In this document: positions 28,501-34,500 of the stretch, one piece after another
Numbering within the stretch: the first letter of the stretch is position 1
How the letters are laid out: each line of letters opens with the position of its first letter
Assembly: GCA_963814585.1 (NCBI GenBank)
Contig: CAWFDF010000008.1
Location: forward strand, 128,001-192,000
Reading direction: 5' to 3'
DNA from: an uncultured delta proteobacterium
GTDB taxonomy: Bacteria > Myxococcota > Myxococcia > Myxococcales > Anaeromyxobacteraceae
Length of the DNA: 64,000 nucleotides
Program-made: the position numbers

Positions 28501-31500
28501 CCTCGCCCGCCAGCGGGTGGCGCCCGTACTTGAGCAGCAGGTCGCCGACGGCCTCGCGCAGGTAGTCCGACTGGCGGACGCGAGTCCGCTTGGCCAGGTT
28601 CCTGAGTTCGGTGGCGAACGCCGGCGGGAGGCGCACCAGCATTGGCTCCAGTCGGTTGGCCGGCTCGGACGGGACGGTGTCGAACTCTGTGGTCATATGT
28701 AGGCTCCAGGGGTGCATTGACTACGTTTACCTACACGCTACCACCTGATAGCAACCGCGCAAGAATCCGGCAATTGGACCCATCCGGGATGGTCCAGGCC
28801 TACCAGCGGAGCTGCACCCCGGACCCGAGCCCCACGCTGGTGATGCGCGCCTCGCCATAGCCACCGCTGAAGCGGGCTGCGGCGTAGAAGCCCCAGGCCC
28901 GCGACGGGTCGTAGGCCAGACCGAGCCCGGCCAGGCCCCCCACCGCCACACGTGAGGCGAGGTTGGCCCAGAGGCCGATCTCGATGAAGGTCTTCAGCTC
29001 CTCCGAGCCGAAGTAGGCCCGGTAGCGGGCGTCGACGCCATAGAGGCACTTCACCTCGTCCGGATCGGACCAGTCGCCGAGCCGGGCCATGCCGCCCACC
29101 TGGAGCTCGTCCCCCTCACCGCTCACGTCGATGCTCCAGGCCAGCCGGAGCGACGGCCGAACGCTGGCGCTGGTGAGCCCTTCGACCACCACCGAGTCCC
29201 GGGCCAGCCCCAGCTCGGCCAGCACCCCCTGCTGGTCGCGGTGGTCGAAGCGCGGCTCGAAGGCGCTGGCGCCCACCGGCGCCACCAGGGCCGCAGCCGC
29301 CAGGGCCAGGACACGAGCCGCCACGCCCGAGGCGCCCGGTGCCGCGCCTCCACTCACGGTGCCACCACCGGCAGCGAGATGCCGGCCAGCTCGTTCATCC
29401 GGCCCGACCGGAACGGCTCGAGGTCCAGCGCCGCGCTGCGGAACCCGGCTTGCTTGACCGCCGCCGCCAGCGCCTCCCGCCGCGCGAAGGCCCCGGCCAG
29501 CTCCTCCTCGGACACCTCGAGCCTCGCCACCTCGCCGTGGTGACGCACGCGGAAGCTCCGCAGCCCGAGCGCTCGCACCGCCGCCTCGGCGCGCTCCACC
29601 TGCCCGAGCCGCTCGGGCGTCACCGGCGTGCCGTAAGGGATCCGCGACGCCAGGCAGGCCAGCTGCGGCTTGTCCCAGGTCGGCAGTCCGAGCGCCTGGC
29701 TCCAGGCCCGGATGGCCGCCTTGCCCAGGCCGGCCTCGGCCAGCGGCGAGCGGACCTCGGCCTCGGCGGCGGCGCGGTGTCCGGGCCGATGGTCGAGGCG
29801 ATCGTCGGCGTTGAAGCCATCGGCGATCACCGTCATCCCCTCCCGCCGGGCCACCTCGCGGCAGCGCTGGTAGAGCTCCCGCTTGCAGAAGTAGCAGCGC
29901 TGATCCGTGTTGGCCTGGTACCCAGGGTCCTCCCCTTCCCGGCTCACGACCTCGAGGTGCCGGGCCCCGAGCCGGGCGGCCAGGTCGCGCGCCGCGATCC
30001 GCTCCGCCTCGGGGACGCTGGGCGAGTGGGCCGTGACGGCGAGGACGCCCTCGCCGAGCACCTCGCGGCCGACCGCCAGCAGGAACGTGGAGTCGACTCC
30101 CCCCGAGAAGGCCACCACCATCCGGCCGAAGCCCGCCAGCTGCCGCCGGAGCAGCTCCAGGTGCGGGCGCGTCGCCAGCCTGAGCTCTTCGAGGTCACCC
30201 TGCATGGCGTCCATCGTACCGCGGCGGCACCCGCGCCGGCGGGACGTCGCCGGGGCGTCAGCGCCTCTTCTTGGTCGGGCTGGCCGCCTTGGCGGGAGCC
30301 CTCTTCGCCAGCGCGATCTTGATGACCCGGGGCGGCTTCTCGCCCCTGGCGACCTTCCCGGCCTTGCTCTTGCGCTTCGGCTTGAGGCCTCCGGTGAGCC
30401 GCCCGAACTCGGTGGGACCGATGAACTTGCCGTCGACCAGGGTCTGGAAGATCCGCGTCAGGCTCGCCTCGACCGGCTCCTGGTCGGTGTGGAGCACCAG
30501 CTCGGCGTGCACCGGCGGCTCGTACGGGAGGTCGACGCCGGCCACCTGGGTGACCTCGCCGGTCATCGCCTTCTTGTAGTAGGCGTCCTTGCCGTCGCGA
30601 TCCATCAGCTTCTCGATGGTGCAGTCGACGAAGACCTCGACGAACCGGCGCGCCTCGCGCCGCAGCTGCTCGCGCGGCTCGCGGAAAGGTGAGAGCGCGG
30701 CGCAGACCGCGATGCCCCCGGCCCTGGCCACGGCCTTGGCCGTGTAGCCGAAGCGCTTCACGGCCATGACCTGGCCATCCTTGGACGGCCCGAGCCCCTC
30801 GATGAGGAACTTGGCCTCGCCGTCCTCGTCGAGCAGCTGGACCACGCGGCCGGCCTGCGCCAGCCGGAGCGCCAGCTGGTTGGCGAGCGTGGTCTTCCCG
30901 GCCTTCTTCATGCCGGTCAGCCAGATGATGAACCCGGTGCTCTGCTGAAAGTCCATGCAGACCTCGAGACGGGGTGAACAGAGAGTATATCCCGCCACCT
31001 CGCCCAAACCAAGTGGAGTTCGCAGGTCTGGGTTCGTTTTCCTGCGTTCTGTCGGCAGGTTAGGCCGAGTTCACCCTTGCGGGGGATCCAGGCGGTCTGG
31101 CCACACGTCGGAGGGCTCGAAGGCGTGGCCGGTCCACCGGTGGGCCCGGATGGCGGTCACCCGCCCTCCTTCCAGGGCCACCACCAGCTGCGCCACGCCG
31201 CCCAGGAACGGGGCGCCACCGGCCAGCGCACCGTCCAGGTCCCGGGTCGAGAGGCCGGCCCCACCGGCAAGGTGGGAGTGGTAGATGGCGACCACCTCTC
31301 CGCCGGTCTCGTCGAGCCGCTGCATGGCCAGGAGCAGCCCGTTCGGCTCGAGCTCGAAGGCGGTCGCCGGCGTCGGGGAGGCGTTGGCGATCGGCCACGC
31401 CGCCACCTCACCCCCCGGGCTCCGGACCAGCAGCCCGCAGACCTCCTCCGCGGGGGCGGCCTCGGCCAGCGCCACCAGTCGGGGCAGCGGCCAGCCTGCG

Positions 31501-34500
31501 CCACGCTCAGGGGTCACTCGCGGGGACCTCGCCGCAGACGCAGCCCGGGAGCCGCTGGGTGGCTCGGAGGGTGGGGACGCCCCGGACCACGTCGATCCGC
31601 CGGCCCTCCTTCGCGTCCGGCTCGACCAGCAGGCGCAGCAGCTCCTGGGCGGCCAGCGAGGCCAGCGCCAGCGCCCCTGGCACGGGCGGGCGCCCACCCG
31701 CGGCGGAGAAGCGCCCGCAGGCAAAGCACGGGGCGCCGGGCGGGACCGAGACCACCTGGCCCGCCTCCCCGTCCAGCTCCAGGACCACGTGCGGGATCCT
31801 CGCGCGGCGCGCCACCTCGGCGGACGCCAGACCCTCCGCCGACGCCGAGGCACAGATGAGCGCCGCCGTGGGCACGGCACCGGCCGGGTACGGGCGCGCC
31901 GAGACGAAGCGGGACAGCGCGCCGAGCGCCGCCGCGGCCGCCCGCGCCCTCGGCTGCCCGACCTCCTCCGGCCGGTAGAGCCAGCCCGCCTGGTCGGCCG
32001 GTTCGAGCACCTCCGGATCGTCGATCCAGATGGTGCCGACGCCGGCCTGGGCCAGCGCCACCAGCGCCGGCGTGGCCACCCCGCTGGCACCGACCATCCG
32101 GATCCGGGCCGACATCAGCCGTTCCTGGCCCGCAGCCCCGAAGCCGGGGACCAGCAGCTGGCGCGCCCAGCGCGCGATCCGCTCGGCGTCGAGCTCCGGC
32201 GCGCCGCCGGCGATGGCCGGCACCAGGCAGATCCGGTCTCCGTCGCGCACCGGCGTGGCCAGGCCGCCCAGCTCGCGCAGCTCCTCCTCGCCGAGGAACA
32301 CGCCGACGTGGCGGCGCACCCGTCCGTCCTCGTCGAGGAGGCGCTGGCCGAGCCGCGGGTGGGCGTGCGCCACCTGGCGAAGCACCTCGCCGACGGTGGC
32401 GCCGACCGCCGTGAGCTCGGCCTGGCCACCGGCCAGGTCGCGCAGCGGCGCGGGGACGGCGATGATCACGGGCATGGGCTCGGCCTCACGGCAGGTCCAG
32501 CGCCGCGCGCGGCGCCCCCTTCTCCAGCACCAACTCCCACGCGCCCGGACCCTGGTCCTCGAGCGGCTCCATCGAGACCACCCGGTGCCCCTCCTCCGCC
32601 GCGCTGGCCGGGACGCTCCTCAGCGGCTCCCCCTCGCGCAGCAGCACCACCACGCGCTCGCCCGGCCCCACCCTCTCCAGCGCGATGCGGGTCTTCACCC
32701 AGGTGATGGGGCAGCTGTCGAGCCGCACGTCGATCATCGCCGAGGCGATCCGGGGCGGCTTCATGGCGCCGGTTCCCTGGCGGCCGGTGCGCAGGCGGCC
32801 GGCCTGCTCGGCTCGAGCGGCTGCGTGCCGGCGCAGGCCGGACAGCCGGGGCGGCGCCGGACCAGCACCAGTCGGCCCCGGCCGGTGCGCGCCTCGAAGA
32901 CCAGGAGCCGTCCGGCGTAGGCGCCGCGCTCGCCGGCCAGCAGGCGCAGCGCCTCGGCCCCATCAGGCCCCCGGCGAAGCCGGCCAGCGCGCCGACGATG
33001 CCCGCCTCGGCGCAGGAGGGGACCTGGCCGGGCGGTGGCGGCGCCTCGAAGAGGCAGCGGACACAGCCCGAGAAGCCGGGGACCACCGTGAGGATCTGGA
33101 GCGAGGTGCGCAGCACGCCGCCGTGGACCAGCGGCTTGCCGGCCCGGAGCGCGGCGTCGCTGGCGAGGAACTTGGTGGGGAAGTTGTCCGAGCCGTCGAG
33201 CAGCACGTCGACGCTCGAGGCCAGCTCGACCGCCTCCTCGGTGTCGAAGCGGCGCCCCAGGGGGACCGCCTGGAGCGCCGGGTGGAGCGCGCGCAGCCGG
33301 GCCGCCGCCACCGCGGCCTTGGGCTGGCCCAGGTCGGCCTCGCCGAAGAGCGGTTGGCGGTTGAGGTTGGAGGTCTCGACCACGTCGTCGTCGATCACCA
33401 GCAGCCGGCCGACACCGCCCGCCGCCAGCGCCAGCAGGGCCGGACCGCCGAGGCCACCCGCGCCGATCACCAGCGCGCTCTTGTTCGAGAGGTCCATCCG
33501 GGCCCGGTCATAGCCCGCGTGCCGGGGTGGGGCAATGCCGAGGACCCGTGCGGAGGGACGGTGCCGGGCCTCGGCGCCTAGAACGACAGCGCCCGGCCCT
33601 GCTGCGCCAGGCGCCACAGCGACGGCAGCGGCTCCAGCCCGTCGAGCCTCGTGCGCACGGCCTCGGGCTCGAGCCCGGCCAGCCGCACCGCCGTCTCGCA
33701 GGCCACCACCCGCAGGCCCAGCTCGCGCCGGGCCTCGGCGAGCGTGGGCTCCAGCGGAGGGACGCGCGCCCCGCTGGTGGTCGGCGGCGCCCCCTCCTCG
33801 AAGCGGCCCTCGACGAAAGCGCGGAGCGGCTCGAAGGCCAGGACCAGCGTGACCGGGTCCCCCAGCGAGGCGGCGGTGACGCCGAGCATGACCGCCTGGT
33901 AGCGCTCCGGCCAGCCGCGGCCGGAGAGGAAGATGACGAGCGGTCGGGACATGGCGGGCCTCCGGGGGCGGCCATTCTACCTTCGAATGTCGCGCCGCCA
34001 TTTCGCCCCGGACGCGCTCGCCCGCGCTTGCAGCCACCCCGGGCCTCTGCTACATACCGACCCCGCTTCGAGCCCAGGTGGTGGAACTGGTAGACACACC
34101 ATCTTGAGGGGGTGGCGCCGTAAGGCGTGCGGGTTCGAATCCCGCCCTGGGCAATCAAGCGAAAGGGACCCGGCCAGCGCCAGGTCCCTTTTTTCTGCTC
34201 GCCGCCCGGCGGCTCGCCTACCTGGCGGGCGCGGGTGCGTGCGCGGGCGCAGGCGCCGCCGGGACGGGAGCCTGGGCCGGGGCGAACGGCGCGGCCGGGG
34301 CCGCCGGAGCCGGCGCGGTCGGGGCCGCCGCCTCAACGGCGTCGAGCACCGACTTGGTCTTCGACGAGTTGTAGGCCAGCGTGAGCGAGGTCAGCATGAA
34401 GATGAAGGCGCTGACGCTGGTCACCTTGCCGAGGAAGGTCTGGGCGCCGCGGCCGCCGAACACGGTCTGCGCGCCGGCGCCGCCGAAGGCGGCCCCCATT

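Follow-up and report, generated by a model that had tools for sequence, protein, structure and literature searches.

In an uncultured Anaeromyxobacteraceae (Myxococcales) genome, the nickel-pincer sulfur insertase gene larE lies in a hub of sulfur-supply genes, and its product is probably recharged at the persulfide level by a cysteine desulfurase, acting either directly or with TusA/DsrE as intermediary, on a path parallel to that of the E1 activating enzymes encoded beside it. Positions refer to the window, the whole 64-kb stretch of this genome (handle G000, 91.7% complete) that was analysed (Table 1). On the minus strand the operon runs dsrE-like, E1a, tusA, thiS::E1b fusion, JAB, APS-kinase paralogue and larE, with successive gaps of 80, −4, 10, ~−11, 114 and 43 nt. 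The genes are tightly spaced and all on one strand. Their order agrees with the description in the genome-wide survey's note, as does the separation of larE from larB-larC (contig C9) and from two larA genes (C3 and C4). Two details required revision: larE, held to end the operon, is followed by an outer-membrane-protein-like gene that overlaps its stop by 4 nt, and thiS, taken for a free gene, is fused to a second, degenerate E1. The outer-membrane-protein-like gene is conserved 3' of larE in Myxococcales and had no family match in profile searches; it probably shares the larE transcript and has no link to sulfur.

Table 1. Features of the larE operon, in window coordinates.
Feature	Position	Strand	Description
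dsrE-like	33578..33952	-	124 aa; candidate persulfide carrier with a single conserved Cys (ACE/DT)
E1a	32761..33497	-	ThiF/MoeB-type adenylyltransferase without rhodanese domain; PF00899 185 bits
tusA	32486..32764	-	TusA/SirA persulfide carrier; CP motif, Cys18; PF01206 53.6 bits
ThiS domain	32203..32475	-	CysO-type ubiquitin-like carrier; PF02597 39 bits
E1b	31507..32202	-	catalytically degenerate E1 paralogue; PF00899 60.5 bits
thiS::E1b fused gene	31507..32475	-	ThiS domain + E1b domain
JAB	~31071..31517	-	JAB/JAMM metalloprotease; PF14464 41.3 bits, NF041370 57.7 bits; start codon uncertain
APS-kinase paralogue	30258..30956	-	PF01583 127 bits; Lys/Ala-rich tail
larE	29354..30214	-	CXXC-C ([4Fe-4S]) type nickel-pincer sulfur insertase; TIGR00268 316 bits
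outer-membrane-protein-like gene	28800..29357	-	ORF + codon bias; label from sequence reading

Judged by its residues, the window LarE is a genuine nickel-pincer enzyme of the CXXC-C type, with a predicted [4Fe-4S] cluster and a predicted conversion of P2CMN to P2TMN. Its TIGR00268 score of 316 bits stands against a cut-off of 150, and the PP-loop SGGVDS (residues 37–42, of the SGGxDS form), C107, C110, C187, S190, R222 and R224 are among the invariant alignment columns. In an alignment to L. plantarum LarE (5UDQ) the CXXC motif is accompanied by a distal cysteine one residue off Cys176 of that protein, and larB and larC are both present in the genome. Across 151 Myxococcota genomes larE is found in 123 and larC in 125, the same families carrying both, and the near-universality of larE in Myxococcales, put earlier at 39 of 41 genomes, extends to 118 of 121. 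According to passages of PMC9283937, the CXXC-C LarE of Thermotoga maritima functions with IscS persulfide; the earlier attribution of the donor role to IscS is accurate in that IscS was used, but the IscS was a foreign one, from E. coli, and acted in vitro only.

The relay genes are well preserved, E1a being present in 51, E1b in 50, JAB in 44 and TusA in 42 of 53 Myxococcota relay loci. E1a retains the GxGGLG, NLxRQ and Cys motifs and is devoid of the N-terminal RYxRQ helix, which is found in frame in none of 45 Myxococcota copies. Its one-base frameshift near position 32957 is most likely an assembly error, since contigs from two public runs (X1, X2) have one extra base there and no frameshift; the gene is also intact in two relatives (L111 and L002). 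E1b is complementary, aligning to MoeB/Uba4 from residue 3–4, retaining the N-terminal RW/YxRQ helix, and keeping NLxRQ in 0 of 47 copies. Together they probably constitute one heterodimeric activating enzyme with E1b as the partner subunit, as in eukaryotic E1 pairs, where the N-terminal arginine helix comes from the partner of an active E1. The E1 genes near larE, 67 in all, encode at most 345 aa, by length too short for a rhodanese fusion, so that these enzymes need an outside persulfide donor. The TusA cysteine is conserved, and the JAB motif (HSH-x7-S-xx-D) is intact. The DsrE-like protein has no Pfam or NCBIfam match and resembles DsrE clusters in ESM Atlas features (0.95 and 0.91); its single cysteine is retained in 14/14 aligned copies, and the gene occurs in 13 of the 53 relay loci, this position being so occupied only in the window's family. 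In a complete genome (G022) the operon's E1a and E1b are the sole E1 matches, the window ThiS query finds no match and a single ThiS-family gene adjoins thiG-thiE. In the window's own genome thiS-thiG lacks a thiF nearby, and MoaD is fused to MoaE. TusA carries persulfide rather than thiocarboxylate, as passages of PMC8584467 describe, and the 'thiocarboxylated ThiS/TusA' relay of the survey's note thus merges two routes.

The carrier encoded beside larE most likely serves cysteine synthesis by CysM, as its linkage suggests. The ThiS domain ends in GG at residues 90–91, masked by the E1b fusion, and the best solved relatives of its profile (3DWG chain C and 4N6E chain B, 102.8 bits) make it CysO-type. 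ThiS occurs in 25 of the 53 relay loci and CysM in 15, always accompanied by ThiS (15/15), which supports the suspicion voiced earlier that a CysM-like gene could be the carrier's client; all 15 CysM-linked copies retain the Asn of the R-Y/F-V/I-N motif, which has disappeared from the window's copy, where signature residues of the family are eroded, and from L002, L063 and L111. Another 28 loci keep larE without ThiS or CysM, and among the 11 loci of the window's family with a genome handle (the window and L111-L120) ThiS is present in only two, in line with its reported absence from many of them. The ten loci with ThiS and no CysM are explicable only by lag or a shift of client, which counts against the preferred reading. 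It also counts against that reading that the CysM homologue of the relay loci scores 344, below the cysM cut-off of 394. CysM is absent from the window's operon, the best matches in that genome being PLP enzymes elsewhere, ~40% identical. A dedicated ThiS for LarE, in the style of TtuB for TtuA, where the carrier gene accompanies the thiolase gene, is not supported, given the CysO-like nature and distribution of the carrier. In Chloroflexota a CysO-like carrier lies within 5.5 kb of larE in 1 of 59 genomes; its neighbours there are PLP-enzyme clients, with a ThrC-like or CysM enzyme next to the carrier in 26 of its 30 best loci. Of the proposal that LarE draws sulfur from this relay, the link to E1, JAB, TusA and DsrE genes is real, but ThiS follows CysM.

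The link of larE to these genes is supported as more than a single inherited accident. Outside the window's family, 30 Myxococcales loci were fetched and one (L138) dropped for want of upstream DNA; E1/ThiS/JAB/TusA genes lie in the larE run in 22 of the 29 informative loci, extending the earlier 14 of 18. Order-level synteny alone proves little, because truA, an unrelated gene 3' of larE, shows conservation (28/40 loci) comparable to that of the relay (32/40). In Chloroflexota, E1/JAB genes accompany larE in 28 of 59 genomes and mnmA, another sulfur consumer, in only 2 of 58, so that the link is more specific than general sulfur clustering would predict; this specificity counts against the preferred reading, as does the JAB gene, which is the immediate upstream neighbour of larE in 18 of 224 loci and part of a fusion with it in two. 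The linkage spans two phyla with different E1 types, and on the LarE tree, whose deep branches are not settled, the E1/JAB-linked proteins do not form one clade (p-AU 0.0008) and the context requires 17–21 label changes. Among 120 clusters listed, 13 JAB::LarE and 2 MoeB-type E1::LarE fusions were found, and further LarE fusions involve CysK, MnmA, BioB and TtcA-like proteins. Recurrence in separate LarE lineages and in fusions speaks against the worry that the linkage is ancestral synteny, though gene order within Myxococcales does not. An arrangement with an E1 gene on either side of larE and dsrE/F/H present, ascribed earlier to Chloroflexota and Dormibacterota loci, was seen in 2 of 60 loci (L249 and L252) from the phylum of G214. 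Among 215 larE loci, 125 have sulfur genes (3 by Rrf2 alone), 42 larB/C, none both and 48 neither. larE occurs beside iscS, thiI, mnmA, cysK and cysE no less readily than with the relay; neighbours among these loci include IscS (20), MnmA-like (16), ThiI (12), CysE (6), Rrf2 (21) and also cysK. No report linking larE to the carrier-toolkit operon class was found in the literature searched.

On the preferred reading, the operon is probably a sulfur-supply cluster of Iyer class 4c/4e that has undergone erosion; its fullest form in relatives comprises cysK-like, E1a, tusA, cysO, E1b, cysM, JAB, APS-kinase-like and larE genes. The CysO-type ThiS may originally have served CysM and, once CysM was lost in the window's family, have mostly been lost too, the window copy surviving, and eroding, as an E1b fusion. 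E1a, E1b, TusA and JAB would be retained for charging and maturing other carriers of the cell (thiamine ThiS, MoaD-MoaE), and evolution would repeatedly have placed LarE in such clusters. LarE would adenylate P2CMN and then insert sulfide held on its [4Fe-4S] cluster, the cluster being recharged with persulfide sulfur that a cysteine desulfurase hands over itself or passes on by way of TusA/DsrE, alongside E1 and not downstream of it. It counts against this reading that a TusA step cannot be general, since of 29 Chloroflexota loci with E1/JAB/ThiS only 10 have TusA/DsrE genes, and TusA is absent from 11 of the 53 Myxococcota relay loci. Gene order, families, motifs and co-occurrence are observed directly and the LarE chemistry with IscS in vitro comes from published work, but the heterodimer, the carrier's client and the donor are inferred.

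A more tentative possibility is that thiocarboxylated carriers form a third sulfur route into the nickel-pincer cofactor: E1a/E1b (a heterodimeric E1 in Myxococcota) would charge a ubiquitin-like carrier, JAB, sometimes fused to LarE, would unmask, mature or recycle it, and the thiocarboxylate at the carrier's C-terminus would load the open iron of the LarE cluster, in the manner of TtuB and TtuA. The recurrent E1/JAB linkage, the fusions and the mnmA control all speak for it, as do precedents in passages of the literature, namely TtuA/TtuB with the shared TtuC (PMC9283937, PMC3980101) and the aryl thiocarboxylates of PDTC and thioplatensimycin made by carrier, E1 and JAMM, with the thioplatensimycin carriers encoded outside its cluster (PMC6006322, PMC1779556). 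Some carrier is present in 120 of 121 genomes examined, and the donor is more likely to come from such a shared pool, itself an unlikely source, than from the operon's ThiS alone, which is very unlikely. Against this route, carriers adjoin their known clients and not larE, control searches of T. maritima turned up no match to ThiS or ThiF, and a 96% complete genome (G040) contains larE but yields no match for ThiS. The single JAB::LarE fusion viewed in wider context (L264) lies in a cysDN-cysK-mnmA-thiS-E1-reductase-tusA-metY operon whose carrier client is MetY-type, and close relatives of its LarE (L266, L273) have no such neighbours. Of the 20 LarE residues with the strongest skew, none follows the E1/JAB context in independent pairs, a weak test with 8 pairs only.

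Quite unlikely is neutral inheritance, by which LarE would use a general sulfur source and old synteny would persist with no selection keeping larE by sulfur genes. The comparable conservation of truA; the retention, in Polyangia, of an unrelated M15 peptidase gene 3' of larE; the 48 loci without sulfur genes or larB/C; and deep LarE branches that would allow one old cluster with many losses are consistent with it. However, larE accompanies several unrelated sulfur sets according to lineage (iscS-thiI; cysK-iscS; rrf2-cysK-cysE-mnmA; E1-JAB-dsrEFH) and is fused to several of their proteins, and chance synteny would not replace one set of sulfur genes with a different one.

In Myxococcales no neighbour of larE is more constant than the APS-kinase paralogue, found within 1.5 kb upstream in 26 of the 29 informative loci outside the window's family (17 of 18 had been claimed). 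It keeps the P-loop and has an altered DGD (alignments to 2GKS and 5CB6; family consensus), scoring 137.8 bits against the TIGR00455 cut-off of 138.7. APS-forming genes occur in 3 of 5 genomes tested, with no CysD/CysH or Sat found in the window's genome or in complete G022. That LarE works with its adjacent gene product and not with the relay, the kinase-like protein binding a nucleotide used in the LarE reaction or phosphorylating it, or JAB stripping carrier conjugates from LarE as a regulator, is the least likely account: the kinase-like gene stands alone with larE in L016, L128, L129, L135 and L136, is fused to it in one record (P0121), persists in genomes where no ATP sulfurylase was found, and passages of PMC3980101 describe TtuB conjugated to TtuA and a JAMM mutant with halved thiouridine, but the pairing is limited to one class in the sample, P0121 is a single sequence that may be read-through, and family f14 has instead a JAB::PUA (ATP-sulfurylase-like) remnant that fits sulfate-activation leftovers.

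The three-cysteine type accounts for the majority of LarE homologues, and its characterised case relied on a foreign desulfurase. The gene contexts of larE point to desulfurase, TusA/DsrE and carrier thiocarboxylate as candidate natural donors, distinguishable with an existing E. coli reporter system. Were the carrier route true, an organometallic cofactor would receive sulfur from a ubiquitin-like relay by way of an iron-sulfur enzyme; otherwise larE is still a marker of sulfur regulons, and its 'sacrificial' annotation is corrected.

Among known systems, the CysO-CysM-Mec-MoeZ set, reportedly a cysteine pathway of Mycobacterium tuberculosis, shares the carrier family (3DWG) and the linkage of carrier, CysM-like enzyme and JAB, seen here in 15 loci; the window differs in its rhodanese-less E1 with TusA instead, in the masked GG end of its carrier and in the lack of CysM. 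Operons with this carrier toolkit were already recognised as a class (Iyer et al. 2006, PMC1779556), and in the passages describing classes 4c/4e one finds the ThiS/MoaD-like carrier, JAB, rhodanese-less E1, SirA/TusA and APS kinase of the window and the cysteine synthase of its relatives. That paper's main text has no match to 'PP-loop' and names no PP-loop/LarE gene. Differing in its two complementary E1 paralogues, its carrier::E1b fusion, and the presence of an APS-kinase paralogue only, with no sulfate uptake, activation or reduction genes or OAH sulfhydrylase, the operon resembles a remnant of class 4e. Thermus thermophilus TtuA/TtuB/TtuC, in passages of PMC9283937 and PMC3980101, likewise combines a three-Cys [4Fe-4S] PP-loop thiolase, an E1 common to carriers and JAMM involvement, but no carrier gene is distributed in step with larE, and LarE acts on a small molecule. 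The syntheses of PDTC, thioquinolobactin and thioplatensimycin, as passages of PMC6006322 describe them, also convert an aryl carboxylate to a thiocarboxylate with carrier, E1 and JAMM, the carriers at times coming from primary metabolism, but with an acyl-CoA ligase and a CoA-transferase in place of an Fe-S PP-loop enzyme. In Thermotoga maritima, where control searches found no ThiS/ThiF match and whose donor was, in passages of PMC9283937 that offer no analysis of gene context, assayed only with E. coli IscS in vitro, LarE matches the window enzyme in the SGGxDS loop, the CXXC-C triad with its one-residue shift, the S/R/R phosphate residues and a genome carrying larB, larC and larA.

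The larE gene of the window, whose product scores 316 bits against TIGR00268, closes a closely packed run of seven genes, with a tRNA-Leu gene upstream in divergent orientation and one further gene overlapping the larE stop. The ThiS-like carrier, a CysO-type ubiquitin-like protein, is fused to E1b, the second of two ThiF/MoeB-type E1 paralogues, at its own GG motif. LarE keeps the PP-loop and C107/C110/C187, and its one-residue cysteine shift identifies the [4Fe-4S] type, as described in passages of PMC9283937. Family profiles, open reading frames, residues and contig positions bear out what the genome-wide survey's note had reported of gene order, larE type and the placement of larA/B/C elsewhere, larB-larC and two larA genes lying on contigs other than that of larE. 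The nearest titled relatives are Anaeromyxobacteraceae. A frameshift in E1a is lacking in the contigs of two public runs (X1, X2) and in the related loci L111 and L002, and is therefore treated as an assembly error, real gene decay being rejected on the same sequences; the split PLP-enzyme genes tabulated below are in line with more single-base assembly errors in this genome. A search for sigma-70-like promoters between 28400 and 34300 returned none, as expected by chance.

Location of the features discussed (unprefixed positions refer to the window; G000, the window's own genome, with its contigs C4, C9 and C14; L164, a locus of another Myxococcota family, f14)
Feature	Location	Strand	Content
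Seven-gene run, close spacing	33952-29354	-	DsrE-like, E1a, TusA, ThiS-like carrier::E1b, JAB, APS-kinase paralogue, larE
E1a frameshift	near 32957
Open frame	about 20003-20302	-	repeated 5-residue unit
larB-larC	G000:C9:242457-250375		end of a chemotaxis run (cheW-, cheY-, cheA-, cheC-like by sequence reading)
PLP-enzyme genes	G000:C14:567895-573892		two genes, each split across frames
suf-like block	G000:C4:60000-73000		suf-like, MoeZ, JAB; low coding scores under the G000 codon model
JAB::PUA fusion	L164:8706-9977		JAB with ATP-sulfurylase-type PUA domain

Myxococcota genes were called by our own script, and profiles built from the loci were searched in six frames; duplicates (L001, L148, L169) and short loci (L081-L110) were left out before counting, and the tallies exclude two erroneous E1 calls (L205_0, L232_0) and, in L018, an E1 located at 7.8 kb. 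Within the order Myxococcales larE is present in 118 of 121 genomes, and 40 fetched loci have the relay (E1, TusA, ThiS and JAB genes) upstream of it in 32 cases and the unrelated truA downstream in 28; synteny at the level of the order is weak evidence, and the informative part is which genes drop out. Across 53 distinct Myxococcota relay loci upstream of larE, E1a occurs in 51, E1b in 50, JAB in 44, TusA in 42, the APS-kinase paralogue in 41, ThiS in 25 and a CysM-like enzyme in 15, figures that are tallies rather than a test, kin not being independent. All 15 CysM loci contain ThiS, ten others have ThiS without CysM, 28 have neither, and two loci combine ThiS, CysM and JAB without E1a. The best solved relatives of the carrier profile are chains 3DWG_C and 4N6E_B, both CysO proteins. 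Because ThiS accompanies every CysM, and because the E1b-fused carrier of the window's genus has lost signature residues that all CysM-linked copies keep, the carrier tracks CysM; larE manages without it in more than half of the relay loci. The same block precedes larE in f14 and some Polyangia, outside the order, and L063 and L076 place dsrE/F/H-like genes and tusA immediately ahead of it. The carriers encoded at L131, L133, L134 and L150 have GG-Cys at their C-terminus and look like a product that JAB would cleave.

Chloroflexota (the phylum of genome G214) have larE in 103 of 201 genomes, a count that includes two unpublished ones used for no other result, and 60 loci from 59 of these genomes were picked for flanking DNA. 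In 29 of the 60 an E1, JAB or ThiS gene shares the strand of larE at a distance of no more than 4 kb, and the reported position of larE between two E1 genes with dsrE/F/H-like genes is confirmed at L249 and L252 (rrf2-E1-dsrEFH-larE-E1). By whole-genome positions, an E1 or JAB gene stands no farther than 5.5 kb from larE in 28/59 genomes and from the control gene mnmA in 2/58; a CysO-like carrier lies that close to larE in 1/59 and to mnmA in 10/58; a ThrC-like or CysM enzyme adjoins 26 of the best 30 carrier loci. The carrier dedicated to LarE that the note had envisaged, supplying thiocarboxylate sulfur in place of a direct transfer from IscS, thus fails the co-occurrence test in both phyla. 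The mnmA-carrier pairing (L345, L347, L352, L358, L370 and five further genomes; order thrC-like, carrier, 80-aa protein, mnmA) may be a matter of regulon clustering, or may hint at use of a carrier by the MnmA there. E1 is near the carrier gene in 24 of the 59 genomes and larE near E1/JAB in 28, both only in G403, a pattern that may simply reflect kinship. Two larE matches occur in G100 and in G363 (loci L237 and L238), the latter with one copy beside E1-tusA-dsrFH-JAB and the other beside rrf2-cysK-iscS-E1.

On a FastTree phylogeny of 224 LarEs the E1/JAB label changes 21 times, at least 14 of them on strong branches, gains not being separable from losses; removal of nine rows (L284, badly trimmed; L140, L257, L261 and L263, long branches; L004, L006, L013 and L138, no upstream DNA) leaves 17 changes. 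An AU test on 47 hand-picked rows of the 224, under a non-mixture model, rejects a single clade of E1/JAB-linked LarEs (p 0.0008). JAB and larE are adjacent in 18 and fused in 2 of the 224; 13 of the 120 clusters listed are JAB::LarE fusions, which come from two or more lineages sharing about 40% identity, and 2 of the 120 longer proteins listed are MoeB-type E1::LarE fusions. P0142 was not counted as a fusion to a carrier-activating E1, its E1 part being TcdA-type. The 240 listed rows held no ThiS::LarE or TusA::LarE fusion, in searches ill-suited to such proteins, and none of the top 20 LarE residues tracked E1/JAB context across only 8 independent pairs.

larE joins any sulfur cluster, beyond the E1/JAB sets, as in the runs iscS-thiI-larE, cysK-larE-iscS, cysK-larE-mnmA, rrf2-cysK-cysE-larE-mnmA, mnmA-larE and larE-iscS. 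In 215 loci, a sample enriched for two phyla, sulfur genes accompany larE in 125 (3 by Rrf2 alone) and larB/C in 42, never both, with neither in 48. Among the 120 listed longer proteins CysK is the fusion partner in 4, MnmA in 2 and BioB in 2; LarE is also fused to TtcA-like proteins, 15 of these with rhodanese. Many listed proteins are TtcA-like::LarE, and P0205 and its relatives are Rhodanese::TtcA-like::LarE triple fusions of 737 aa (15 listed clusters); HAD::LarE, LarE::BioB and one NadA-LarE are listed as well. The only JAB::LarE fusion viewed in wider context (L264) belongs to the operon cysDN-cysK-mnmA-thiS-E1-reductase-tusA-metY, whose carrier has its own, MetY-type client.

PDB 8CNZ, presumably the LarE of M. 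maripaludis, is a holo-LarE structure, as are 8CP3 and 8CP4. Passages of PMC9283937 describe adenylation of P2CMN by three-cysteine LarE and propose that the enzyme inserts the non-core sulfide of a [4Fe-5S] state; in vitro it was recharged by E. coli IscS persulfide and not by Na2S; larB, larE and larC of Synechocystis function in E. coli (passages of PMC11796402, which leave the LarE type unstated). Since Thermotoga maritima, searched as a control, gave no ThiS or ThiF match, a carrier is not universal. LarE and E1 alike convert a carboxylate to a thiocarboxylate via an adenylate, and the E1s near larE are taken as rhodanese-less because all 67 are 345 aa or shorter. We infer, with somewhat better than even confidence, that LarE is recharged at the persulfide level and shares regulon and sulfur feed with this E1; the persulfide would reach LarE straight from a desulfurase or by way of TusA/DsrE. 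Against persulfide recharge count the comparison with mnmA, the close pairing of JAB with larE and the fact that TusA/DsrE is missing from 19 of the 29 Chloroflexota loci. That carrier thiocarboxylate is LarE's donor is doubtful, set against the co-occurrence failure, although TtuA/TtuB and the synthesis of PDTC and thioplatensimycin offer precedents, in the latter two of which carriers can be encoded outside the cluster (passages of PMC6006322 and PMC1779556), and E1/JAB linkage without a carrier fits a shared pool. Neutral synteny is an improbable account of larE placement. That the kinase paralogue, alone with larE at five loci, or JAB is the direct partner of LarE is highly implausible.

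The label "degenerate" is fair for the window's APS-kinase paralogue, in which the P-loop is retained and the lid largely so, while the DGD motif is altered and the score falls just below the apsK cut-off. No ATP sulfurylase was found in G000 or the complete genome G022, though both keep the paralogue; cysD/cysH-family genes lie elsewhere in three of five genomes tested. Copies in L126, L127, L137, L149 and L168 are extended by a very long tail rich in Lys and Ala, reaching about 250 aa and histone-like in composition. In f14 the tabulated fusion, also present in L165, L173 and L179, takes the paralogue's place, and the two are probably different sulfate-activation remnants ahead of larE.

G022 gives no E1 matches beyond E1a and E1b of the operon and none to the window's carrier, and its sole ThiS-family gene adjoins thiG-thiE; G000 has thiS-thiG without a local thiF, and a MoaD-MoaE fusion. 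The E1/TusA/JAB toolkit therefore serves housekeeping clients, as the E1 TtuC does in Thermus (passages of PMC3980101), and JAMM cleavage of MoaD-MoaE fusions is reported for Deinococcus (passages of PMC8832034). G000 also encodes a separate 383-aa MoeZ-like E1; its suf-like/MoeZ/JAB block may be foreign or mis-binned DNA. The arginine of the N-terminal helix has a role in E1 enzymes. Since the RYxRQ helix is found in 0/45 Myxococcota E1a and kept by most E1b, and NLxRQ in 0/47 E1b, these complementary losses suggest that E1a and E1b form a heterodimeric bacterial E1. In the window E1a spans 33497-32761 and E1b 32202-31507.

The openly available main texts searched gave no report linking larE with E1, JAB or carrier, and passages of PMC2948915, PMC13524815, PMC13066941, PMC13759103 and PMC8584467 contain none; LarE is merely one among the Thi4 neighbours listed in passages of PMC13325395. 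The neighbourhood file of PMC1779556, a supplement, could list LarE-like genes. The larE contexts make the question of LarE's sulfur donor testable, in a toolkit that matches classes 4c/4e of Iyer 2006 (PMC1779556) and adds to them, on the passages of its main text, a PP-loop gene not named there.
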